In this document: positions 4,138 to 61,299 of the stretch, piece by piece
Numbering within the stretch: the stretch's first letter is position 1
Layout of the letters: the number at the start of each line of letters is the position of its first letter
NCBI RefSeq assembly: GCF_056712565.1
Contig: NZ_CM160072.1
Strand: one strand, 5' to 3'
DNA: 64,000 nucleotides
Notes under the pieces: generated by a model
What the model was told of the DNA's origin: nothing
The model's input: the letters and a program-made list of their open reading frames with translations, nothing else
Databases searched by the model: none
Translations under genes and position numbers: made by a program

Positions 4138-6475
<2,338 letters not shown>

Positions 6476-17338: not shown

Positions 17339-18019
17339 TTAGCGCAAAATTCCATACTCACCGCACAATAACCATTTCACCGGTTCATCTTCTTCTATCG
17401 CCGGAAAACGTCCTCCCGGCTCAAGAAAATAATTATCGTGTTGGTCATCATTTACCATCGAGATTTCCCAGCCGAGAACAAACGCTTTTTCCGCCCAGAA
17501 GCGATGATACAGACGCGGCGGCAGGCAAATGCCCTGCCCCGGCTTTAGCACCAGCGTTTCACCAGGTTTCATGGTACGCCGCTGACCATCAACACTCACG
17601 GTAATGACTCGTTGATCATCACAGAGATTGGCTTCGTTGGCCCAGGCCAACCGCATGCATAAGTCTCCACCGCCCCGATTGAGGATATCTTCCATTTTGT
17701 GGGTGTGAAAATGCCAGGGAGTCTGCTGATCTTGTTGGATCTGCAACATTTTCTCAGCATACGGTTTTGGATATGCCGCCGACCCCAGCGCGCCGTTGCG
17801 CATCGTTAGCAGTGTTAGTCCCGTTTGGTTGAAATCACCACGACCAAAATCGGTGATATCCCAACCGAGCTGTAAGTCGACCACTTCTTGCCAGTTATCC
17901 CGTTCCCGCTGCAGCCAGTCATCCACCGTAAAATAGGCGAACTCTGGCAAACAAACGCGGAAGGTCTGCGCAATGGCATGTGCTTTATCAATAACATAAT
18001 TAATTTGTGAACGTTTCAT
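17339..18019 (-). CDS. Cupin-superfamily protein (possible sugar ketol-isomerase), last gene of frz-like operon
   Basis: ORF 17339..18058 in track, likely start MKRSQINY; matches the cupin gene described for the ExPEC frz operon. Confidence 0.7.
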   Translation of the reverse strand: MKRSQINYVIDKAHAIAQTFRVCLPEFAYFTVDDWLQRERDNWQEVVDLQLGWDITDFGRGDFNQTGLTLLTMRNGALGSAAYPKPYAEKMLQIQQDQQTPWHFHTHKMEDILNRGGGDLCMRLAWANEANLCDDQRVITVSVDGQRRTMKPGETLVLKPGQGICLPPRLYHRFWAEKAFVLGWEISMVNDDQHDNYFLEPGGRFPAIEEDEPVKWLLCGEYGILR

Positions 18020-18932
18020 TGGCTTCTCCGTTGCGCATAGCAAGCCAGGCAGCGCCACGCATTCCGCTACTGTCGCCGTGCTGTGCTTTTACAATGGGAG
18101 TGGTGAATTGATCGGTGAAAACCAGTGGAGCGACTTCTGCGTTCAGATCGGTGATAAGCAGTTCCACATTCGAAAGCCCGCCGCCGATCACAATCACGCC
18201 AGGGTCAACAACATTAACGATGGTTGCCAGCGTGCGGGCAAGCTGTTGGCGAAAACGTGCCACCTGCTGCATGGCACAAGCATCACCACGTTGTGCCAGG
18301 GTGACAATCGCCGCAGGAGTGAGCAAGTTACCAGTCATCTGTTGATAGCGTTCACTAAAACCGCTGCCGGAAACAAACGACTCCACGCAGTTGTGTTTGC
18401 CGCAATAGCAACTGACTGATGGACCATCTTCCTGCTCCGTATAGCCTGGCAACGTGATATGACCGCATTCGGCAGCATTTCCCCAGGCCCCTATAAACGG
18501 TCGTTGCTTGATGGCAATGCCACCGCCGCAGCCCGTACCAAGCGTAATACCAAATACCACGTCATAATCTTGCCCGGCACCGTCGCAAGCTTCTGATAGC
18601 GCGAAACAGTTACCATCATTGGCTATCACCACCGGTTGCCCAAGCAATTGCTGCAAATCAGCCTGTAACGCATGACCGTTAATCACCTGAATATTCGCGT
18701 TTTTAATCAGGCCAGTGAGTGGCGAGATACTGCCGGGTAAGGCGATCCCTGTCAGCATCGGTCGTTGAACGTCCCGCCTAATCTGCTCGATAAGCGCCAC
18801 AACGCATGAGACAAATTGTTGATATGTCGACTTTTGCGTCGGGCAGCGGTAACGGCGAATCTCCCAGCCATGCGCATCCATGACAACGGCGGCGATTTTG
18901 GTCCCACCAATATCCAACCCCAGATAGTGCAT
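18000..18932 (-). CDS. ROK-family sugar kinase
   Basis: MHYLGLDIGGTKIAAVVMD N-terminal ROK/ATPase motif; Cys-rich zinc motif (CYCGKHNC). Confidence 0.8.
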   Translation of the reverse strand: MHYLGLDIGGTKIAAVVMDAHGWEIRRYRCPTQKSTYQQFVSCVVALIEQIRRDVQRPMLTGIALPGSISPLTGLIKNANIQVINGHALQADLQQLLGQPVVIANDGNCFALSEACDGAGQDYDVVFGITLGTGCGGGIAIKQRPFIGAWGNAAECGHITLPGYTEQEDGPSVSCYCGKHNCVESFVSGSGFSERYQQMTGNLLTPAAIVTLAQRGDACAMQQVARFRQQLARTLATIVNVVDPGVIVIGGGLSNVELLITDLNAEVAPLVFTDQFTTPIVKAQHGDSSGMRGAAWLAMRNGEANETFTN

Positions 18933-18979
18933 ATCTCGTTCCTTGTTGCGTAAAAGGCGGGTCACCCCGCCCTTCTGGC

Positions 18980-19840
18980 TTAGTACAGTGATGCTTTACC
19001 GAGCGAACCGAACAGTTTCATTTTGTGGCGAATGACTTCCCGCGCCGCGTTAATCGCATCCGGATAGATGACGTTCGGGTCCCACCAGCTCTCTTTAGCG
19101 AGAATTTCACGCACTTTCTGGAAATAGGCGTATTTCATATCGCTGGAGATATTGATTTTGCCGACGCCGAGCGTAACTGATTCAGCAATCTCCGCGTCCG
19201 GGTTTGCCGAACCACCGTGTAGCACCAGCGGAATATCAATACGTCCGGCAATGTCGCGCAAAATGTCCATTTGCAGCTTCGGCTGCATCCCTTTTGGATA
19301 GATGCCATGCGCTGTACCAATCGCCACAGCCAGTGTGTCGGCACCTGTACGAGCAATAAAATCGGCGGCCTGCGCCGGATCTGTGTAGGTCACTTGTGAA
19401 ACACCACCTTCTACCGACGTTCCTGTTTGTCCGATGGTTCCCAGTTCACCCTCAACCGACACGCCAACCGCGTGAGCGAGGCGAACCACTTCTGCGGTCA
19501 GCGCCACGTTTTCTTCATACGGCAGCAGCGAACCGTCGATCATTACTGAGGTAAATCCGCAGCGAATCGCACGCAAAACATGCTCTACAGAGGCACCATG
19601 ATCGAGGTGCAGTACAAACGGGACCGGACTACGCTGGGTAATTTCGCGAACGTGAGCGAAAAAGGCATCGCCCACAAAATCATGTTCGCTGGGATGGATG
19701 GCAATAATCGCCGGAGTATTTGTCGCTTCTGCTTCATCCACGACTGCGCGAAGGAAACAGTTATCCGCCACATTAAATGCGCCAATGGCAAAGCCGTGCT
19801 GGCGGGTAGGTTGCAGTAATTCTTTCATCGAAACTAACAT
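18980..19840 (-). CDS. Class II ketose-1,6-bisphosphate aldolase (GatY/KbaY-like), paralog 2
   Basis: 286 aa; LHLDHG and GELG motifs typical of class II aldolases. Confidence 0.8.
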   Translation of the reverse strand: MLVSMKELLQPTRQHGFAIGAFNVADNCFLRAVVDEAEATNTPAIIAIHPSEHDFVGDAFFAHVREITQRSPVPFVLHLDHGASVEHVLRAIRCGFTSVMIDGSLLPYEENVALTAEVVRLAHAVGVSVEGELGTIGQTGTSVEGGVSQVTYTDPAQAADFIARTGADTLAVAIGTAHGIYPKGMQPKLQMDILRDIAGRIDIPLVLHGGSANPDAEIAESVTLGVGKINISSDMKYAYFQKVREILAKESWWDPNVIYPDAINAAREVIRHKMKLFGSLGKASLY

Positions 19841-19920
19841 GTTAAATCTCCAGTTTCAGCGTGTAGTCCGCCCTGCCGGTGCGTTATTGCACTGGCATAA
19901 AGGCCATGACAGAAAATGAA

Positions 19921-20772
19921 TCAGGCTTTGCCGATAGAGCCGCTCGCCTGTAAATACGGTGTAATCGCTTCTTCGAAGGCCAGTTCCATAGCTTTCAGCG
20001 CGTCCACCAGTTCAATGGATATATCGTGACAGAGGGTATGCAGGAGCGCGGATTTCCCCCGTTCAAAAATGGCCGCCCCCACGTTGATTTTTGCTACCCC
20101 CAGCGTCGTACAGAGCTGGAGCTGATCGAACGGCGTACCGCTACCGCCATGTAATGCCAGAGGCACGCTCGAGCAGCGCGAAATCTCCGCCAGACGCTGA
20201 AAATCAATAGCAGGTACAACGCCAGGCGCGTACATGCCGTGCGCCGTGCCTACCGAGACGGCCAGTAGATCAATGCCTGTCTGCGCGATAAACGGTTCCA
20301 CATCAGTGGGTTGCGTCATCAGGTCTGCATTGGCGGCCTGGTCGTAACGCGGCGCATCTGCCAGATGGCCCAGTTCGCCTTCCACGCAGAGCTGCGCGCT
20401 GGCGGCGAGTTCCACCACCGCCCTGGTCTGGCGCACGTTTTCCTCCAGGGGAAAAGCAGAAGCATCAATCATTAATCCGCTGAAACCAGCACGAAACGCC
20501 TGACGAATACAGTCCGGATTTTTGCCATGATCAAGCGCCAGAGCGACCGGTACTGAGGCAGATTCCGCGAGCGTTTTAACCACTGCCGCCGCGACGGGTG
20601 CAGGAAAATGCGCCAGATGCCCCTGATAGAGATTGAGAATGATCGGAGCGCGATTCTTCTCCGCCACGCGGATAGCTGCGTGAGCACTTTCCAGATTCAT
20701 ACAGTTGATCGCCAGCAAGGCGTAATGTTCATGCCAGGCTTTCATCACCATACTTTTCATATCGGCAAACAT
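19921..20772 (-). CDS. Class II ketose-1,6-bisphosphate aldolase (GatY/KbaY-like), paralog 1
   Basis: 283 aa; LALDHG and EGELG motifs. Confidence 0.8.
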   Translation of the reverse strand: MFADMKSMVMKAWHEHYALLAINCMNLESAHAAIRVAEKNRAPIILNLYQGHLAHFPAPVAAAVVKTLAESASVPVALALDHGKNPDCIRQAFRAGFSGLMIDASAFPLEENVRQTRAVVELAASAQLCVEGELGHLADAPRYDQAANADLMTQPTDVEPFIAQTGIDLLAVSVGTAHGMYAPGVVPAIDFQRLAEISRCSSVPLALHGGSGTPFDQLQLCTTLGVAKINVGAAIFERGKSALLHTLCHDISIELVDALKAMELAFEEAITPYLQASGSIGKA

Positions 20773-20783
20773 AGGGCCTCCGG

Positions 20784-21875
20784 TTATTCGAGGGTGAAAG
20801 TGATCTCTTCATCTTTCAGCTTTTGATCGCTCAGTTCGTCAAACTCTTCGTCGCGTTCCGTTACCGGTTTCTTCCAGAGTGAAAGCATCACGCCACAAAT
20901 CACCGTGCCTATACCCAGCGCCAGGCAAAACAGCAGAGGATGGGTGAACAGAGGCACAACAAACATGCCGCCATGCGGAACCGGACTCTCCACGCCCCAC
21001 ACCATGATTAAGCCGCCCGCGACCGCCGATGCCACCACACAAGATCCCACTACTCGCAGCAGGTCACGCGCGGCGATCGGAATGACTCCTTCAGTGATCA
21101 TGCAGATCCCCATCGGAAACGCGGCTTTCAGCGCCTCGCGCTCCGCACGGGTGTATTTATGGCGTGTCAGTAAGAACGAAAGTGTGATGCCAAACGGAGG
21201 GATGATTGAGCCGACAAATTTCACGGCTTCTGGTCCGTAGACGCCACTGACCAGCAAGCCATCGGAAAACAGCGACATGGTTTTGTTGACCGGACCACCG
21301 AAATCGAAGGTTGCCATCGCGCCAAGTATGGCCCCCATCAGGAAGCGCGATCCGCCCTGCATCGACTCGAGCAAATGAATCAGTGCTTCTTGTAACCAGG
21401 CGATGGGTTTACCAATCAGCGTCATCATTAACAGCCCACCGATAATGGTGCTTAATACCGGCAACACCATGATTGGCATGAGTCCTTGCATCGACTGCGG
21501 CAGGCGGATATAGCGTTTAAGTAGCAAAATGGTGTAGCCCACCAGGAAACCACCCAACATACCGCCAATAAATCCGGTATGGATTTGCCCACAGAGAAAG
21601 CCGACAATCAGGCCCGGGGCAAATCCGGGACGATCGGCAATAGAATAGGCAATTGCCGCGCTAATCAGCGGCACAATCAGCCCCATTCCCCAGCCGCCAA
21701 TCTGATTAAGCATCCACGGGATTGTTCCTGTTTTTTCACCAACATCTGTACCGCCAAGAACTTGCCCCAACGCAATACATATCCCGGCGGCCACAATAAG
21801 GGGTATCATCCACGAGATGCCGGTTAATAAATGTTTTTTAATTTCCTGTGAAACCGGAATTTTATTTTCTTTCAT
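20784..21875 (-). CDS. PTS fructose-family EIIC permease
   Basis: 363-aa polytopic membrane protein; gene order IIA-IIB-IIC. Confidence 0.8.
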   Translation of the reverse strand: MKENKIPVSQEIKKHLLTGISWMIPLIVAAGICIALGQVLGGTDVGEKTGTIPWMLNQIGGWGMGLIVPLISAAIAYSIADRPGFAPGLIVGFLCGQIHTGFIGGMLGGFLVGYTILLLKRYIRLPQSMQGLMPIMVLPVLSTIIGGLLMMTLIGKPIAWLQEALIHLLESMQGGSRFLMGAILGAMATFDFGGPVNKTMSLFSDGLLVSGVYGPEAVKFVGSIIPPFGITLSFLLTRHKYTRAEREALKAAFPMGICMITEGVIPIAARDLLRVVGSCVVASAVAGGLIMVWGVESPVPHGGMFVVPLFTHPLLFCLALGIGTVICGVMLSLWKKPVTERDEEFDELSDQKLKDEEITFTLE

Positions 21876-21899
21876 ATTAAGATCCCTCCAGTATAAGGA

Positions 21900-22214
21900 T
21901 CATTTGTTTCCCAGTGATTTTTCGACCTTTTCAAGAAATTGAACGGGCGATTTAATGACGATCTCTGTCTTTACTCGCACAATACGTTTATTGGTGAAGC
22001 GTTCTTCTCCTTTTATTTTCACATCTACAGCAAGAATCACGACGTCAGCAGCAGAGATATCTGCCGCCTGTAATTCATTTTCTGTACCAATGGTTCCCTG
22101 GGTTTCAACTTTAATGGTATGGCCCAGAGCTTTTGCTCCTTTGATTAACTTTTCACGAGCAATATAGGTATGAGCAATACCCGCCGTACAGGCGGCAACA
22201 CAGACAATATTCAT
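21900..22214 (-). CDS. PTS fructose-family EIIB
   Basis: 104 aa; N-terminal CVAACTAGIAHTY phospho-cysteine motif. Confidence 0.8.
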   Translation of the reverse strand: MNIVCVAACTAGIAHTYIAREKLIKGAKALGHTIKVETQGTIGTENELQAADISAADVVILAVDVKIKGEERFTNKRIVRVKTEIVIKSPVQFLEKVEKSLGNK

Positions 22215-22231
22215 GACATACTCCCTGTTAT

Positions 22232-22702
22232 TTAGAAGACATCGGATTGTGCATACTGACTAAAGAGATCAATGATTTTTTGCGGACTCGTCTCAACTAA
22301 CAATTGTTCTATGATGTCATCATCCGCCAGCGCGCCCGCGACCTGGGAAAGTAAACGGATATGGGTGGTATTTTGATCTTCAAGACGTACCGCAAATAAA
22401 ATAATACAGCGCACGCTACTGCCATCCAGCGTTTCCCAGGGAATATCCTGGCGGGTACGGCCAATTGCCAGCGTAGTATTAATCACAGCTGAAGATTTAC
22501 CATGCGGGATCGCAATATGATTTTCAAAACCAGTCGAGCCTTCCGCTTCGCGCTGCCAGACATCTTTAATAAAGGTTTCCCGACAATCGATCGCACCATC
22601 TTTTTTGAGAAGATTAGTTAATTCTTCAATCGCCTCCGCTTTATTCGTCGCTTGCATATCTAAAATAACGCGATTCGTATTCAGGATTTTTGTTATGTCC
22701 AT
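22232..22702 (-). CDS. PTS fructose/mannitol-family EIIA
   Basis: 156 aa; IAIPHGK phospho-histidine motif. Confidence 0.8.
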   Translation of the reverse strand: MDITKILNTNRVILDMQATNKAEAIEELTNLLKKDGAIDCRETFIKDVWQREAEGSTGFENHIAIPHGKSSAVINTTLAIGRTRQDIPWETLDGSSVRCIILFAVRLEDQNTTHIRLLSQVAGALADDDIIEQLLVETSPQKIIDLFSQYAQSDVF

Positions 22703-22728
22703 TCGTCATACCTCATAAAATTCTGACA

Positions 22729-24282
22729 TTAAATTTCAACGACCCGAGACGTCGCATGATGTAATTTTTCCGTAATCACCATTTCAGTGACCCGCTTAAT
22801 ATCGGCATCATTAAAAAAAGCGGTAACATAAGCGACCGGCATAGTGACTGTAGGCAAATTAATGGTCGAAATAATCAGTTCGATATTGTCAGGCAAAACC
22901 TGTGATAAATTCGCTGCTGAAATAACATCAACAATCGTCCATTCAGGAAATGCTCGCAGAATACGGCTTTTCAGTAGATGCGAAGTTCCGATTCCGGTTG
23001 AACAGACCAGTAATACACGTTTACGGGCAATTTGCCGCTCCATCGCAGCCTGAAAATGAACGGTCAGGTAACCCACTTCATCCTCGCTCACTGCATTCTC
23101 ACCCCAGGTTTTAAATACCTGATTCACCACATATTGCGTCAACCGCCAGACATCCGCTAATTCTGCTTTAATATCTTCCAGCAATGGATTACGGATATGA
23201 ATGCGATAATTTAGACGGTTAATCAGCGGCTTAATATGCACCAATAAGCCATCATATAATGCGCTGTCTTCACTAAAATCGCAGTCCACGATGTCACTGA
23301 ATACCGTAATTAAACGCCAGGTAATCAGACGCGCTTCATTGCTGGCCTGCATATGTGAAATAATGCTAACATCTTTTTGTCCATCAATCGCCACACCTGA
23401 TGAAATGATATATTGATAAATAAACCAGACTTCATCATCGGGCAATGTATGTGCAATTCGTTGTTCTATCTTATGAATCATCTGACTGGCAACATTAAAG
23501 ATATTTTCATCATATTGTCTGGTTTGATCTTCTTCTCTTGATAACGCATTCCCGTGCGTGTTGCGATACATCATAATAAGGATGTGAGTAAAAATGTTAA
23601 CGTAATAAGGTTCTCCCAAAGACCAACTTAATTCATTTTCCATATCCAGTAACAATGACTGGACAAATAACACCTCTTCTTCTCCAAAATAATGGACTAA
23701 TGCTTTATAGCTTCCGGGATCCAGACGTGAATACACGACACCTTGCGGCTCATTATGGTTAATAATGCCGTTAATCAGTAATGCCATTGCCTGTCGGACT
23801 TGCCCTTCACTACCTTCAATATGCGTACCACTTGGACTGCGGATCAACGATAACCCCAACGGCGCAAGCCAGGACTCAATTACTCTCAGGTCATTAACAA
23901 TAGAGGCTCCGCTGATAAAGTAGCGTTCTGACAATTTACTGATCGACGTTTCATTCGGTGTTTCACTTAATAACTGCGACGCTATTTTAACGCGCCTGGC
24001 ATTATTCATTACACCATCAATCTCTTCACATTCTGCCACCAACAAATGATCAAGATGCAGCAAATCAGCAATATTCTCCGCACTTAACATCACACCCGCG
24101 CCAGCACGCTTCTCAACATTTATTCTCCATTGTCCCAGCCATTGCTCAAGTAAACGTAAATCACGTTGAATGGTTTTTTCCGAAACATTTAAATAGCCGG
24201 CAATCGTAACAATAGTCGTATATTCCCTTCGAGGTAAAAGGAATCGTAATAATCTGTTTTGTCGCGAGGTAATCATTTGCAT
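22729..24282 (-). CDS. PRD-containing transcriptional regulator of PTS operon (Mga/MtlR-like; HTH + PRD + EIIB-like domain)
   Basis: 517 aa; N-terminal HTH, central PRD-like region, C-terminal CSTGIGTS EIIB-like motif. Confidence 0.75.
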   Translation of the reverse strand: MQMITSRQNRLLRFLLPRREYTTIVTIAGYLNVSEKTIQRDLRLLEQWLGQWRINVEKRAGAGVMLSAENIADLLHLDHLLVAECEEIDGVMNNARRVKIASQLLSETPNETSISKLSERYFISGASIVNDLRVIESWLAPLGLSLIRSPSGTHIEGSEGQVRQAMALLINGIINHNEPQGVVYSRLDPGSYKALVHYFGEEEVLFVQSLLLDMENELSWSLGEPYYVNIFTHILIMMYRNTHGNALSREEDQTRQYDENIFNVASQMIHKIEQRIAHTLPDDEVWFIYQYIISSGVAIDGQKDVSIISHMQASNEARLITWRLITVFSDIVDCDFSEDSALYDGLLVHIKPLINRLNYRIHIRNPLLEDIKAELADVWRLTQYVVNQVFKTWGENAVSEDEVGYLTVHFQAAMERQIARKRVLLVCSTGIGTSHLLKSRILRAFPEWTIVDVISAANLSQVLPDNIELIISTINLPTVTMPVAYVTAFFNDADIKRVTEMVITEKLHHATSRVVEI

Positions 24283-28579: not shown

Positions 28580-28674
28580 GGAAGATCGTCGTCTCCGGTG
28601 AGGCGGCTGGACTTCAAATCCAGTTGGGGCCGCCAGCGGTCCCGGGCAGGTTCGACTCCTGTGATCTTCCGCCA
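28580..28674 (+). tRNA. selC: tRNA-Sec (selenocysteine tRNA), 95 nt
   Basis: Sequence GGAAGATCGTCGTCTCCGGTGAGGCGGCTGGACTTCAAATCCAGTTGGGGCCGCCAGCGGTCCCGGGCAGGTTCGACTCCTGTGATCTTCCGCCA read directly; matches E. coli selC from memory. Confidence 0.95.
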
Positions 28675-28726
28675 AAATGCCTCTCCTGAACTCTCCCGAC
28701 GTCAACAACACTCCTTCGGAGGCGAC

Positions 28727-29764
28727 ATGTCAGACAAAGACTTAACCCAGCCCCCAGCAGGCGAGTTTATTATGTTTGCCAGCGGTGACGGAAGAGTGCG
28801 TGTTGAATGTCGCTTTGAGTCAGACACAATCTGGTTATCCCAGGCGGCAATGGCTGAACTGTACGATAAAGATGTTCGCACTATTAACGAACATTTAATC
28901 AATATATTTTCCGAAGGTGAACTTGTTCAAAACTCAACCATCCGGAAATTCCGGATAGTTCGCCAGGAAGGAAAACGTCAGGTTTCCAGAGAGATAGACC
29001 ATTACAACCTCGAAGCCATTCTCGCTGTCGGCTATCGCGTTCGCTCGCCTCGAGGCACGCAATTCCGCCAGTGGGCAACGCAGACGCTTCAGGAATACCT
29101 GATCAAAGGTTTTGTGATGGACGATGAGCGGCTGAAGAATCCGCCTGTCGGTTCATCGGTTGTGCCCGACTATTTTGATGAGATGCTTGAACGCATCCGC
29201 GATATTCGCGCCAGCGAGCGTCGGGTATATTTGCGGGTGCGGGAGATCTTTGCTTTAGCTGCCGACTATCAGCCATCGCTTAAAGAAACCACGCAATTTT
29301 TTCAAACCATCCAGAATAAACTGCATTTTGCCTGTACCGGGCATACCGCTGCGGAACTCATCCACAAACGAGCAGATGCCAGCCAGCCGCACATGGGCTT
29401 GACCAGTTATAAAGGTGAAGAGGTACGTAAGGGCGACGTGACGGTGGCAAAAAATTATCTCACCCAGGATGAGGTCAGCGAACTTAATCGCGTGGTTAAT
29501 ATGTGGCTGGACTTTGCCGAGGATCAGGCCCGTCGTCGTCAGCAAGTCTTTTTGCGCGACTGGCAGGATAAGCTGGATCAGTTCCTGCAATTTAACGACC
29601 GAGAGGTTCTACAGGGCGCTGGTAAAATCAGCAAGAAAATGGCCGATGAAAAAGCGCAGGCGGAGTATGTTCAGTTTGCCGAACAACAACGGCGCTTAAA
29701 AGAAGCCGAAGGCGAGAAGGATATCGCTGGTTTGCTACAGTGGAATAAAGAGTCGAAAAAGTAG
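28727..29764 (+). CDS. RhuM-family (virulence protein RhuM-like) protein, 345 aa
   Basis: N-terminal region ...IWLSQAAMAELYDKDVRTINEHLINIFSEGELVQNSTIRKFRIV... resembles RhuM family as I recall it; RhuM is selC-linked in Salmonella SPI-3. Confidence 0.65.
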   Translation: MSDKDLTQPPAGEFIMFASGDGRVRVECRFESDTIWLSQAAMAELYDKDVRTINEHLINIFSEGELVQNSTIRKFRIVRQEGKRQVSREIDHYNLEAILAVGYRVRSPRGTQFRQWATQTLQEYLIKGFVMDDERLKNPPVGSSVVPDYFDEMLERIRDIRASERRVYLRVREIFALAADYQPSLKETTQFFQTIQNKLHFACTGHTAAELIHKRADASQPHMGLTSYKGEEVRKGDVTVAKNYLTQDEVSELNRVVNMWLDFAEDQARRRQQVFLRDWQDKLDQFLQFNDREVLQGAGKISKKMADEKAQAEYVQFAEQQRRLKEAEGEKDIAGLLQWNKESKK

Positions 29765-29875
29765 CCCGGAATCCCCCCAAACGCCATACGCAAAACCATT
29801 TGGGGGTACTTATGGGGTTACTCATTTATCAAATTCAAAATATAAACATTAAATCAATAACTTAACCATCAAATG

Positions 29876-29903
29876 CGACTCCTGTGATCGCCAAAATGCC
29901 TCT
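29876..29903 (+). repeat. Direct repeat of selC 3' end (att-like scar)
   Basis: 28 of 32 positions match the selC 3' end plus downstream flank, with a 4-bp gap. Confidence 0.6.
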
Positions 29904-29971
29904 TCAGTGATCCCCATCCTGCTTATTTCTGAGCAACCTGACCCTGCTGATGTATCTGGTAGTATGACAGA

Positions 29972-30193
29972 GTGATTCGTTTTTCTTGCCGAGTGTACGA
30001 AAACGTCTTCCTTGCCACCGACTATCAACCGTCACTCAAAAAAACCTCTCTTTTTTTCAAGCTATCAAGAATAAGTTGCATTTTATCTGCACCGGACACC
30101 AGCCATCCATATATGGCTTTTACCTGCTACAAAGATGAAGAAGTGCATAAATGTGATGTTAAAACAATCAAAGAAAAATTACATGCGCAATAA
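29972..30193 (+). pseudogene. Decayed fragment of a second RhuM-like gene
   Basis: Translation ...FLATDYQPSLKKTSLFFK...YMAFTCYKDEEVHKCDV... parallels residues ...FALAADYQPSLKETTQFFQ...HMGLTSYKGEEVRKGDV... of the intact copy. Confidence 0.45.
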
Positions 30194-30333
30194 TTTCACT
30201 ATAACATTATAATCCATGGTGAAAATAACACTGCACAAGGATTGTCATCATCAAACTCATCGGAACTATTTTTTCTGTCGTCATTGGTGTAATACTGATT
30301 GTAAGTATCCTTTCAGGAGATTATTTTTGCCGT

Positions 30334-30832
30334 GTGGGGCATGGAACTTGTAAAGCAGCCAAAAGCGCTAGGCATTTAATTGAAAGTAAAGAGAAAAACA
30401 GAAGTAGTCGCGTCAAAGTCTTTAGCACGCATATTAATTTGAGTCATCCAGCGGCATCCTGGCTAGCAACTCAAACTTGCGCTAACAATATATTCAATCT
30501 GCTTCAAAACAATAATGCCATTTATTTATTCAAAAACGATAATAAAATTGAACTGCGAATGGGGTATGATTCTTTTTTCTCTATTGAAACGATTGATAAA
30601 ATTAACAAAGAAAACATCAAAGAAATAAAACTAAAAAATGATACAACATATGTTTCTCTTCCTAATCCAACCATTTTAATAACCAACGACATCAACACCT
30701 GAACGACAGTTTTCTATTTCTGTTCTGGATGATGATAACAAAGAAAATCTACCTACCGATACCGCACCTTGTTTTACAATTGGTATTCCTGATGAATATA
30801 CTAAAGCCATAGAGTTATTGAACATTAAATAA
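30334..30832 (+). pseudogene. AT-rich hypothetical ORF apparently disrupted by a +1 frameshift near 30700 (122-aa frame then about 40 more codons in the next frame)
   Basis: Two adjacent open frames of similar AT-rich, Asn/Lys/Ile-rich composition; no family recognised. Confidence 0.3.
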
Positions 30833-56362: not shown

Positions 56363-57610
56363 CTAGCGGTCAGTTTCGGTGATCCACAACTGACCGTCCT
56401 CCATCCACGCCAACCATTGACCATCCGGCGAGAAAACCACGGCGTCCGCAGAAGGTGGATTGGCGTGGTTTTCGGTTAAATACTCAACCTCGCCGCTTTG
56501 CGCATGGGCACAAGCAATCCGATTATCCAGCACAAATCCCAGCCATTCGCCTGATGGATGCCAGTTAAATGCAGACTGAATATCCGTTTTATTATGGGTT
56601 AACTGGCGTGGTTCACCGCCCTGTGGCGAGATAAGCCACAGTTGCACAATGCCGTTATCATCACGCATTAAAAACGCAATTTGTGTTCCTTGAGGATTAC
56701 AACGCACCCAGTGGCGCGGAATGTTAACCAGGCCCGGGTAAATACGATGGTGCGTAAAGGTTAAACGTCGCTGCACGACACCACGCGGTGGCGCAGGCAG
56801 GGTTGTTTCCGTTCCACTTAACGGCACATCACCTGCCGCTTTCCAGCCAGCTTCATCTTTCGGCAACTCGACAATAAACAGCTCCGGCACTTTCTCGCCC
56901 TTTGGCGAAAGTGTGTCGCCAATAAACGCCAGCGCGTGATTTCCTACCCATCCTTCTTCATAAGCACGATTGATTTCATCACTGCCAGGCTGTGGCGTGG
57001 GCGTGGTTTTACTTACCAGCACGCACCAGTGGCTACCGCTGTATTCACGCGGATGCTGCTTTTGTACGTTGACCGGGCCAAACGGTGCAGCAACACCGAC
57101 GTTTCGCAAATCCAGCGCCGGATCGAGTTCATGCATTACATGGTCGTTGTAGGTAAAGCTCACCCTTTCACCGTTCGGGCTAAAGACATGTACATGGCTG
57201 CCGCCACGTAGCGCTCCTGGCGTATATGGCGCGGTAATATCCATTGCATCGAGATTGCTCACCTTGCCGCTTTCAACAATCACTCCGCGCCGATGATGAA
57301 AGTCGTAATACCATGTTTCATCAGGATTTTCCGGGCCGTGGATGAAGACATACTTCTCTGACTTCGGATGAACGGTCACCACGCCGACGTATGCGCCCTG
57401 TGACGCGCGATAGATAACCTCGACCTCGCCGGTATGGATATTCACACGCTCAATGGTCTCGCCGGTAAACGACGCCCCAGAAGGCCGCACGTCAAACACC
57501 AGCCACTGGCTGTCGGGCGTCCAGGTATTGGTATTGGTGAGCAGGTGATTACGAGGAGCAAAGGTTATCTGTTTCATGGCGCGGTCCTGATACAAAACGG
57601 TTCCCGCCAT
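56363..57610 (-). CDS. yidR: Uncharacterised beta-propeller-like protein YidR
   Basis: 415 aa; synteny. Confidence 0.8.
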   Translation of the reverse strand: MAGTVLYQDRAMKQITFAPRNHLLTNTNTWTPDSQWLVFDVRPSGASFTGETIERVNIHTGEVEVIYRASQGAYVGVVTVHPKSEKYVFIHGPENPDETWYYDFHHRRGVIVESGKVSNLDAMDITAPYTPGALRGGSHVHVFSPNGERVSFTYNDHVMHELDPALDLRNVGVAAPFGPVNVQKQHPREYSGSHWCVLVSKTTPTPQPGSDEINRAYEEGWVGNHALAFIGDTLSPKGEKVPELFIVELPKDEAGWKAAGDVPLSGTETTLPAPPRGVVQRRLTFTHHRIYPGLVNIPRHWVRCNPQGTQIAFLMRDDNGIVQLWLISPQGGEPRQLTHNKTDIQSAFNWHPSGEWLGFVLDNRIACAHAQSGEVEYLTENHANPPSADAVVFSPDGQWLAWMEDGQLWITETDR

Positions 57611-57677
57611 AATACTTCACAAGGACTTCACTTTCAGACAATAGTCTTTTGCCATCGTGATGAATGTGAGTGAAAAG

Positions 57678-58778
57678 ATGGAACATTTCGACGTGGCGAT
57701 TATTGGCCTCGGCCCGGCAGGGTCGGCGTTGGCGCGAAAGTTAGCAGGCAAAATGCAGGTGATCGCGCTGGATAAAAAGCACCAGCATGGTACTGAAGGT
57801 TTCAGCAAACCTTGTGGCGGTCTGCTGGCACCGGACGCGCAGCGATCTTTTATTCGCGATGGATTGACGCTTCCTGTCGATGTCATCGCCAACCCGCAGA
57901 TTTTCAGCGTCAAAACCGTCGACGTCGCCGCATCGCTCACGCGTAACTACCAGCGAAGCTATATCAATATTAATCGCCATGCTTTCGACTTGTGGATGAA
58001 ATCGCTGATCCCCGCCAGCGTTGAGGTTTACCACGACAGCCTGTGTCGAAAAATCTGGCGTGAGGATGATAAATGGCATGTCATTTTTCGCGCAGACGGC
58101 TGGGAGCAGCATATTACCGCCCGCTATCTGGTCGGTGCCGATGGTGCCAACTCGATGGTGCGGCGACATCTCTACCCGGATCATCAGATTCGTAAATATG
58201 TCGCCATCCAGCAGTGGTTCGCAGAGAAACATCCGGTGCCGTTCTACTCCTGCATCTTTGATAATGCGATAACTGACTGTTACTCATGGAGTATCAGCAA
58301 AGACGGTTATTTTATCTTTGGCGGTGCCTATCCGATGAAAGACGGTCAGACGCGTTTCACGACGCTAAAAGAGAAAATGAGCGCCTTTCAGTTCCAGTTT
58401 GGTAAGGCGGTGAAAAGCGAAAAATGCACGGTGCTGTTTCCCTCACGCTGGCAGGATTTTGTCTGCGGCAAGGACAACGCCTTTCTGATTGGCGAAGCGG
58501 CGGGATTTATCAGCGCCAGCTCGCTGGAGGGGATTAGCTATGCGCTGGATAGCGCAGAGATTCTGCGTTCGGTATTACTGAAGCTGCCAGAGAAGCTCAA
58601 TACCGCTTACTGGCGCGCCACTCGCAAACTGCGTTTAAAACTCTTCGGCAAGATAGTAAAAAGCCGATGCCTGACCGCACCGGCTTTAAGAAAGTGGATT
58701 ATGCGCAGTGGAGTGGCGCATATTCCACAGTTGAAAGATTATCCAACGCGCTTCACATCGCCCACCAGCAGGATGTAA
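57678..58778 (+). CDS. cbrA: FAD-dependent oxidoreductase CbrA
   Basis: N-terminal FAD-binding motif [14 protein letters not shown]; synteny; start codon uncertain. Confidence 0.8.
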
Positions 58779-60031
58779 GAGAGCGCGCCAATCAACGCGA
58801 CGGCGGAGATATAAACCAGTGCAGGCGCGAAACCGTAACCCTGCGCCAGGTACCCCACCACCAGCGGAACGGTGATGCCGCCCAGACCACCGGCAAAGTT
58901 AAACACACCGCCGGTTAAACCAATCAGGCGCATCGGTGCCAGAGAAGAGACCAGCGACCAGGTTATCGAAGCAAAACCGTTGCCGAAGAATGCCAGCGCC
59001 ATCAGGCACATAATCATCATCGGATCGTTGGTGTAGTTCGCACCCATAATGCAGGTGGAGATCAGCAAGCCGCAGATAATCGGCGTTTTACGCGCAAAGC
59101 CCAGTGAAAAGCCCTTACGTACCAGCAGATCCGCGACCCAGCCAGAGAGCAGGACGCCAATAAACGCCGCGAGGAATGGCACCGTGGTCATAAAGCCTGC
59201 TTTCAGCGCTGTGATTCCTTTTTCCTGGGTTAAATAGTTCGGGAACCAGGTTAAGAAAAACCACAGTGTAGAAGCCACCGCAAATTGCCCAAGATAGACA
59301 CCGATCAGTTTACGATGGAACACCAGTTTCCAGTCTTTGGCTGTTAACGGCTGACGCGCCTCTTTCTTCACCGGCGCATCGCCATCCACCAGACCGCCGC
59401 CATCACGAATGTAATCCAGTTCAGCTTTGCTGATGCCTTTGGTCAGACGCGGCGGCTGATAAACCTTAAACCAAATCAGCGACCAGATAATGCCGATACC
59501 ACCGGTGACAATGAACACCCAGTGCCAGCTCAACATCTCCTGAATCCAGATCAGCAGCGGAGTCAGAAACGCCAGACCGACAAACTGACCAGACGTATAA
59601 AAACCAACGGCAGAAGCACGTTCATGTTCCGGGAACCAACTGGTTACCATCCGGTTATTGGTCGGGAACGCGGGCGCTTCGAAAATACCGGTTATCGCGC
59701 GCAGACCAATTAATGACATTAAGCCCGTGGCAAAGCCCTGGAATAACGTCGCCACTGACCAGCCAAATATCGCAATAAAATAAGTCACGCGTGAACCTAC
59801 GCGATCTAAAAACCAACCACCGGGGATCTGACATAGCGTATAAAGCCAGGCGAAGGCCGAAAATACATAGCCCATTTGCGCTTTAGTAATACCAAACTCT
59901 TCCTGAATATGGGCAGAAGCCACGGCCAGGTTAGCGCGGTCAACATAACAAATGACCACCGTAATAAAGATCATCACCAGCGTCAGATAACGCCGACGCC
60001 CCGGCTTTGCTGCATTAACGGGAATATCCAT
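58739..60031 (-). CDS. dgoT: D-galactonate:H+ symporter (MFS)
   Basis: 430 aa from [22 protein letters not shown]; dgo operon synteny. Confidence 0.9.
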
Positions 60032-60150
60032 AGCGAGCTTTCTCCAGATTTTGGGCATAGCGAAGCCGCTCACCATGCCCTGTAATTTACAGAGGGTTAT
60101 ATTTTTGTATTGCTGTTTTAGTGCCCGATGAGGGGCTTACGTGGCAGGAA

Positions 60151-61299
60151 TTACCACTCTGCTACGCTGTTATCTTCATGACGCCAGAGCGGATTACGCC
60201 AGTCCGGGGCATTTTTACTGAACTCAATAACTTTAGCTTCGTCGATTTCCACGCCTAAGCCCGGTTTCGTTAATGGTTTAAAGAAACCGCCGACCATGCT
60301 GAAGTCCTCTTTGTTTTTCACAAAGTCGAGTAACTCCGCGCCTTTGTTGTAATGAATGCCCATACTTTGTTCCTGAAGGACGGCGTTATAGGAAACAAAG
60401 TCGATATGCAGGCAAGCCGCCAGTGCAATCGGTCCGAGCGGACAGTGCGGCGCAAGGGTCACGTCATAGGCTTCTGCCATTCCGGCAATTTTGTAGCATT
60501 CGGTAATACCGCCTGCGTGGGAGAGATCCGGTTGCAGAATCGAAATACCGCCTGCCTCCAGCACACGTTTAAAATCGAAGCGTGAGAACATGCGCTCACC
60601 CGCCGCCAGTGGAATATGCGTTTGTGCCGCCAGTTTCGGGTAGTATTCGGCCTGTTCCGCCAGCACCGGCTCTTCAATAAACAGCGGACGATACGGTTCC
60701 AGCTCTTTAATCAGCACTTTCGCCATCGGCGCGCTGACGCGACCATGGAAGTCCAGACCAAACTCAATCTGATTACCAAAGGCTTCACGAATTTGCGCCA
60801 CGGTGTTGACTGCCGCATCTACCGCGCGGGAGTTATCAATTAGCCCCAGTTCTTCACAACCATTCAGTTTGAAGGTATCGAAGCCGATTTCGCGTAGCGT
60901 TTTAATGCCGTCGATAACATCCGCCGGACGATCGCCGCCGACCCAACTGTAGGCTTTAATTTTGTCGCGAACCAGGCCGCCCATCAGTTGCCAGACCGGC
61001 GCATTCAGCACTTTGCCTTTGATATCCCATAACGCCTGGTCGATCCCGGCGATGGCGCTCATCAGGATTGGACCGCCACGATAAAATCCGGCGCGATACA
61101 TCACTTGCCATAAGTCGTTGATGCGTGACGGGTCCTGACCAATCAAATAGTCACTCAGCTCGTGGACTGCCGCTTCCACCGTGCGAGCGCGGCCTTCAAT
61201 CACGGGCTCGCCCCAACCGACCACGCCTTCATCGGTTTCAATTTTCAGGAACATCCAGCGGGGAGGTAAACGATACGTGGTAATTTTGGTGATTTTCAT
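60151..61299 (-). CDS. dgoD: D-galactonate dehydratase
   Basis: 382 aa enolase-superfamily protein [25 protein letters not shown]. Confidence 0.95.

Follow-up and report, generated by a model that had tools for sequence, protein, structure and literature searches.

A silent base in dgoT sets the cbrA stop codon and the length of a convergent gene overlap in Escherichia coli

INTRODUCTION

The 3' ends of cbrA and dgoT, which lie on opposite strands, share 40 nt of coding sequence in the Escherichia coli strain studied here, raising the question of whether this overlap ties the expression of the two genes together or simply reflects where a stop codon happens to lie. The first-pass annotation of the window (the whole 64,000-nt stretch of DNA that was analysed) held that the overlap would force transcriptional interference or shared termination, and allowed that it might represent a conserved arrangement or an over-extended ORF call. 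The dgo operon is controlled by DgoR and galactonate. By saturating the alpha-isoprene unit of the C55-P carrier lipid, CbrA protects against colicin M (review PMC8469651).

RESULTS

Gene calls at the junction

With a 2.9-kb query around the junction, the window was found to be 100% identical to E. coli DSM 30083 (ATCC 11775; NZ_CP033092.2), and the PGAP annotation of that identical record was used for the gene coordinates (Table 1). The convergent 40-nt overlap described in the first-pass annotation is borne out by both the ORF list and the PGAP coordinates, which place dgoT as the last gene of the dgoRKADT operon. The start of cbrA is an ATG at 57678 according to PGAP and a GTG at 57657 in the first-pass call, a difference that leaves the 3' end unaffected. 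Profile searches assigned CbrA to the NF008519 equivalog (FAD-dependent geranylgeranyl-reductase-like; 686 bits against a cut-off of 303), with residues 1–354 aligning to profile positions 1–354 of 355 and residues 355–366 falling outside the profile. DgoT was assigned to TIGR00893 (D-galactonate transporter; 495 bits against a cut-off of 395), and its C-terminus (...VGDVKRVG*) is kept in 16 loci from seven genera. Both genes have homologues in the thousands, and the 366-aa CbrA representatives themselves stand for thousands of database sequences. As judged from these sequence comparisons, both cbrA and dgoT are real genes rather than spurious antisense ORFs.

Table 1. Coordinates of the features at the cbrA–dgoT junction, and counts of the alleles at position 58742
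Feature	Position	Strand	Description
cre-tag TTCACAAGGACTTCAC	57616..57631	+	47 nt upstream of the cbrA ATG; exact match
cbrA CDS	57678..58778	+	366 aa; colicin M resistance lipid reductase; PGAP annotation of the identical record
dgoT CDS	58739..60076	-	445 aa; D-galactonate:H+ symporter; PGAP annotation
CDS overlap	58739-58778	tail-to-tail	40 nt in this strain; 4 nt (58739-58742) in K-12-type strains
cbrA extension	58740..58778	+	12 extra codons and TAA stop, antisense to dgoT codons Ser-Tyr...Gly
Deciding SNP	58742		T (this strain): cbrA TAT Tyr, read-through, dgoT GGA Gly; G (K-12): cbrA TAG stop, dgoT GGC Gly
Allele T	58742		1,499 genomes; 105 hit solely a second dgo-like locus that lacks cbrA; ~1,394 at the cbrA locus
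Allele G	58742		3,456 genomes (~3,450)
Allele C	58742		4 genomes, second-locus or plasmid copies only
Allele A	58742		1 genome
Hairpin A	58694..58728	-	13-bp arms with 1 mismatch, 9-nt loop, then UUUCUU; dG -17.4, z -6.6
Hairpin B	58653..58687 (stem 58660-58687)	-	GC-rich 8-11 bp stem, 6-nt loop, then UUUUUACU
C-rich, G-poor stretch	58819..58958	+	base fractions per 80-nt window: C 0.34-0.40, G 0.24-0.29

One silent base determines the cbrA stop

The same two genes (b3690 and b3691) occur in K-12 MG1655 in the same orientation and frame relation, with the same flanks and the same hairpin B sequence. In curated MG1655 and in K-12 W3110, however, CbrA has 354 aa and its gene ends ...KD-TAG, with the TAG at the equivalent of 58740–58742, whereas the plus strand of ATCC 11775 reads ...AAAGAT TAT CCA ACG ... 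AGG ATG TAA and CbrA has 366 aa. The curated cbrA does not end upstream of 58739, the outcome that the first-pass annotation had named as refuting the overlap; its end corresponds to 58742, 4 nt inside dgoT.

How the two stops interlock can be read from the coordinates. The dgoT stop occupies 58739–58741, and the 'TA' of cbrA at 58740–58741 is the complement of the 'TA' in this dgoT TAA stop. Strain alignment and translations show that the SNP at 58742 is synonymous in dgoT, where it is the wobble base of the last sense codon (Gly). Since the third codon positions of cbrA and dgoT coincide, a silent change in dgoT can switch the cbrA stop on or off. The TAA that ends the extended cbrA (58776–58778) is in turn the complement of the dgoT Ser-Tyr codons (TCT TAC). 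T at 58742 gives this strain its 40-nt overlap, and G at the same position in K-12 makes the cbrA codon a stop and limits the overlap to 4 nt.

In the Escherichia lineage no spacer remains between the two genes, and the cbrA frame enters the complement of the dgoT TAA. With G or A at 58742, cbrA stops there and overlaps dgoT by 4 nt; with T or C it continues for 12 codons to the TAA and overlaps by 40 nt. As a four-fold degenerate site of dgoT, 58742 probably drifts. No special mechanism of translation is needed because cbrA and dgoT sit on different mRNAs. The switch gives a reason why CbrA is annotated with 354 aa in one set of strains and with 366 aa in another, namely a silent wobble change in the gene on the opposite strand.

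Distribution of the alleles in E. coli and its relatives

The base at 58742 was typed in 5,426 complete E. coli genomes, using 55-nt queries centred on the SNP and requiring each 28-nt megablast seed to include 58742. The 40-nt form of the overlap was found in ~29% of the genomes typed at the cbrA/dgoT locus (Table 1), and the C and A alleles, which were also sought at this locus in the complete E. coli genomes, are essentially absent from it.

A comparison with other species returned 80 loci, none of them from E. fergusonii, E. marmotae or E. ruysiae. Read-through to a 40-nt overlap is seen in E. albertii (T), E. whittamii (C) and Pseudocitrobacter vendiensis (T), the last with an identical tail peptide; Escherichia sp. 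E1V33 has G and a 4-nt overlap. An A with a 4-nt overlap (TTAA) was found in Citrobacter amalonaticus, C. sedlakii, C. youngae and another Citrobacter sp., and likewise in Phytobacter massiliensis and Enterobacter sp. ENT03. All four bases therefore occur at the position equivalent to 58742 across genera, in the same frame relation, and the length of CbrA follows. The suggestion in the first-pass annotation that the arrangement may be conserved is right: a convergent junction with touching or overlapping stops is present in Escherichia, Citrobacter, Pseudocitrobacter, Phytobacter and an Enterobacter.

The junction of the Citrobacter/Phytobacter type is also convergent, with the same frame relation and the 4-nt TTAA stop overlap. 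In these genera and in Enterobacter sp. ENT03, the DNA separating the CbrA core from the dgoT stop forms a GC-rich hairpin, CAGCCCGCC-N9-GGCGGGCTG, whose sequence also encodes the CbrA tail; Escherichia lacks this hairpin. It is located ~10–40 nt before the dgoT stop (loci L009, L012, L019, L021, L024, L035, L056 and L071) and shows compensatory changes between species, for example CAGTCCGCC/GGCGGACTG in strain S646. A U-run follows this hairpin on neither strand.

Two further rearrangements of the dgo genes were observed. In O157:H7, Escherichia sp. E1V33 and E. albertii, the dgo operon is absent and the same ~110-nt remnant of the dgoT 3' end is found beside cbrA; the three loci (L004:4340-4620, L006:4062-4342 and L007:4062-4342) share the same junction, at approximately window position 58848, and the same sequence to yidX. 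Because the same remnant and junction occur in three Escherichia lineages, the sequences point to one old deletion event that may have crossed species boundaries by recombination or persisted as an ancient polymorphism. Separately, ~105 E. coli genomes contain a second dgo-like cluster (MFS transporter, dgoD, dgoA) beside hypT and a degenerate IS200/IS605 tnpA, as exemplified by L003:2367-6045 (NZ_CP033635.1). Related dgo-like copies are present on four plasmids (hits H86 and H88–H90), a location that suggests a mobile galactonate module.

The 12-residue tail of CbrA

An alignment of 18 CbrA homologues is conserved up to approximately ...AHIPQ (residue ~350), after which unrelated tails of 0–37 residues follow. 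The 12-residue extension thus lies outside the conserved CbrA core in this alignment, as well as outside the NCBIfam profile. In the cbrA frame, the antisense of dgoT contains 20 stops in 446 codons, and the open runs have a mean of 20 and a median of 14 codons. Since open runs in this frame average 20 codons, a 12-codon run-on is typical of what follows when the stop is lost, and the 40-nt overlap is not more than chance gives. A second difference from K-12, at 58775, is silent in dgoT (TAC/TAT) and changes the last residue of the tail from Met to Ile, a pattern in keeping with dgoT as the partner under constraint. These 12 additional residues are probably a neutral, unselected appendage, as judged from their variability, because they lie beyond the conserved core, where the tails of the homologues are unrelated.

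Minus-strand hairpins within the 3' end of cbrA

On the minus strand, downstream of dgoT, two hairpins are located within the last ~40 codons of cbrA (Table 1). Hairpin A begins 11 nt past the dgoT stop and is a candidate for a first dgo terminator or a 3' stabiliser. Hairpin B lies 52–79 nt after the dgoT stop, in cbrA codons ~326–337, where the same DNA encodes 10 CbrA residues. It has the anatomy of an intrinsic terminator: the stem-loop is GC-rich, a U-run adjoins it, and the operon's final stop codon is a short distance upstream. Its folding energy on the minus strand is -18.4; on the plus strand, where a G-U pair becomes an A-C mismatch, the hairpin is weaker (-13.5). In hairpin A, the K-12 SNP at 58718 turns a C-G into a U-G pair, so that pairing is kept on the minus strand only. 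Together, the G-U pairs and the SNP at 58718 appear to favour a role on the minus strand alone.

We compared the 96-nt region that contains the hairpins with synonymous recodings of the same peptide. On the minus strand, the natural sequence is more stable than 996 of 1,000 recodings (-37 against a recoded mean of -25 kcal/mol), although the z-score is only -2.8; the stability of the hairpins derives in part from the amino-acid sequence. A strict scan of the whole window, covering 128 kb of strand, returned 14 sites with a hairpin followed by a U-run, and five of these lie 30–78 nt after stops that end operons, namely those of gltS, uhpT, ilvN, ibpB and dgoT (hairpin B). Like hairpin B, the terminators of gltS, uhpT, ilvBN and ibpAB have a GC-rich stem of 7–10 bp, a loop of 3–6 nt and a U-run; unlike hairpin B, which is inside the coding sequence of a convergent neighbour, they are intergenic. 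The first terminator scan had missed hairpin B, apparently by extending its stem into the U-run, and the later scans recovered it.

A well-formed hairpin B is confined to Escherichia, P. vendiensis and Enterobacter sp. ENT03. In an alignment of 44 loci from Enterobacterales, its columns pair in only 54.5% of cells, with covariation only slightly above controls, and hairpin B was rejected as a family-wide conserved RNA element of cbrA on the basis of this pairing. Because the same columns pair in so few cells, the hairpin is specific to particular lineages. A search at E<=1 found no Rfam family in 57400–60300.

On the grounds of minus-strand stability, of pairing and of the U-run scans, the dgo mRNA is predicted to terminate inside cbrA, at ~58655 and perhaps also at ~58690. 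No mapped 3' end of dgoT or cbrA was found in the supplements to Term-seq, Rend-seq and Nanopore studies of E. coli transcripts or to ExcludonFinder. The arrangement has practical consequences for strain construction: deleting cbrA cleanly, or tagging its C-terminus, would destroy or damage the predicted terminator of dgo, and the C-terminus of CbrA would change if a deletion of dgoT extended to its stop.

Termination and control of cbrA

Three scans found no hairpin with a U-run on the plus strand from the cbrA stop to 60190, a distance of ~1.4 kb. Being without an intrinsic terminator, cbrA transcripts would run into antisense dgoT, and they would probably be stopped by Rho once the ribosome leaves at 58778. 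The C-rich, G-poor stretch that begins at 58819 could, speculatively, serve as the Rho loading region for these transcripts.

Upstream of cbrA, a single exact match to the cre-tag direct repeat (TTCACAAGGACTTCAC) is present, the only one in the 64-kb window. The sequence fits the CreBC cre-tag consensus, and cbrA is under CreBC control.

The overlap of the coding sequences and the predicted end of the dgo transcript inside cbrA imply that the two mRNAs would overlap, since cbrA has no intrinsic terminator. The expected complementary stretch is no shorter than ~124 nt in this strain, and ~88 nt in K-12.

DISCUSSION

We consider a passive tail-to-tail overlap of two real genes to be the likely explanation of the junction, together with the termination model set out above. 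The 40-nt overlap is an ordinary arrangement that is already in the public annotation of ATCC 11775, and an overlap of coding sequences does not by itself force transcriptional interference, contrary to what the first-pass annotation held.

The alternative that survives best, which we nevertheless regard as unlikely, is a selected regulatory excludon in which transcription of dgo and of cbrA would be mutually repressive, either because polymerases collide or because RNase III cuts the RNA duplex. Tuned by the 40-nt and 4-nt alleles, such a device would link galactonate catabolism to modification of the lipid carrier. Several observations speak for it. The transcripts are expected to overlap by at least ~90–125 nt, a convergent junction is kept in several genera, and the two genes appear to have separate, condition-specific controls, with the cre-tag at cbrA and DgoR at dgo. 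Mutual repression would matter, speculatively, only if CreBC-driven cbrA and galactonate-induced dgo were expressed together.

The pair is also part of the MG1655 excludome: ExcludonFinder (Nucleic Acids Res 2025, PMC12288877) names cbrA–dgoT as one of 165 convergent excludons that occurred in 50% or more of 58 RNA-seq samples. The pair is therefore already on a list of convergent excludons, and the mRNA overlap predicted here fits the published listing. That listing, however, denotes transcript overlap only, and it was obtained with coverage thresholds, for two weakly expressed genes, and in K-12 rather than in ATCC 11775 (PMC12288877). A search of the literature on dgoT with Hfq and antisense RNA found nothing useful.

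Against selection for mutual repression, the length of the overlap toggles freely with a silent site of dgoT. The cbrA gene is unchanged where dgo has been deleted (O157:H7, E. albertii and Escherichia sp. E1V33), it occurs in many genera in which dgoT is not its neighbour, and in Buttiauxella agrestis the two genes are separated by a gap of 62 nt. Tight convergent junctions are, in addition, common in the window. Among its 11 convergent gene pairs, two overlap according to the annotation (40 nt for dgoT/cbrA, 4 nt for ligB/yicG), and gaps of only 3 nt (yidR/yidQ and nlpA/yicL) and 7 nt (yidF/emrD) separate three others, so that such junctions are ordinary here. A close parallel is ligB (-)/yicG (+) at 4752–4755, a tail-to-tail pair like cbrA/dgoT in which the two stop codons interlock. 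Its overlap measures just 4 nt; that of cbrA/dgoT is ten times this length because the interlocked stop has been lost. Both yicG–ligB and yidQ–yidR are also in the MG1655 excludon list (PMC12288877).

A more elaborate version is conceivable, though we give it still less credence. The hairpins in the last 40 codons of cbrA would be under dual selection, the 3' UTR of dgo would act as an antisense RNA against cbrA, and galactonate would thereby lower the CreBC-driven modification of the undecaprenyl carrier. The T/G difference at 58742 would then shift ribosome shielding, access of Rho and the extent of the duplex.

Far less plausible than a passive overlap is a shared bidirectional terminator, in which one hairpin between or across both stops would end both transcripts, as happens at numerous convergent gene pairs and as implied by the shared termination of the first-pass annotation. 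Hairpins A and B do fold on both strands, and the first scan flagged a small stem at 58760–58744 that spans the overlap. On folding, this stem proved weak (dG -5.4, z -0.34) and it was rejected as a terminator. Hairpins A and B are situated 50–118 nt upstream of the cbrA stop, inside cbrA, and since both precede that stop, termination at either would truncate cbrA. Their plus-strand stems are followed by AAGAAAG or AGUUGAAAG rather than by a U-run, and neither of the later scans returned a plus-strand match. In sum, no hairpin lies past both stops, the U-run is on the minus strand only, and the terminator-like features belong to that strand.

Finally, an annotation artefact, in which cbrA would be over-extended or 58742 misread and the true end would lie at or before the dgoT stop, can be set aside as extremely improbable: the curated K-12 cbrA is 12 codons shorter and the CbrA family profile stops at residue 354, but 58740–58742 is TAT in this strain, with no in-frame stop before 58776, the PGAP call is identical and describes a 366-aa protein whose representatives stand for thousands of database sequences, and T at 58742 is not a sequencing error because ~1,394 complete genomes have the same base, which is also found in E. 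albertii and P. vendiensis.

Other features of the window

Several annotation differences were recorded in passing. For dgoT, the start differs between PGAP (445 aa, from 60076) and curated MG1655 b3691 (430 aa), which begins 15 codons further in, at MDIPVNAAK (60032–60076, minus strand). The length of yidR is 404 aa in PGAP and 415 aa in both MG1655 and the ORF list. In this strain, the annotation treats the sulfatase-like gene yidJ (48583–50075, minus strand) as a pseudogene with a frameshift. Between yicI and yicH, at 17339–24282, there are seven unnamed sugar-utilisation genes, which comprise a BglG-type antiterminator, fructose-type PTS IIA/IIB/IIC, two aldolases, a ROK protein and a lyxose/mannose isomerase. 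At 28580–30702, a RhuM-family gene and a hypothetical gene adjoin tRNA-Sec. Both blocks look like strain-variable insertions.
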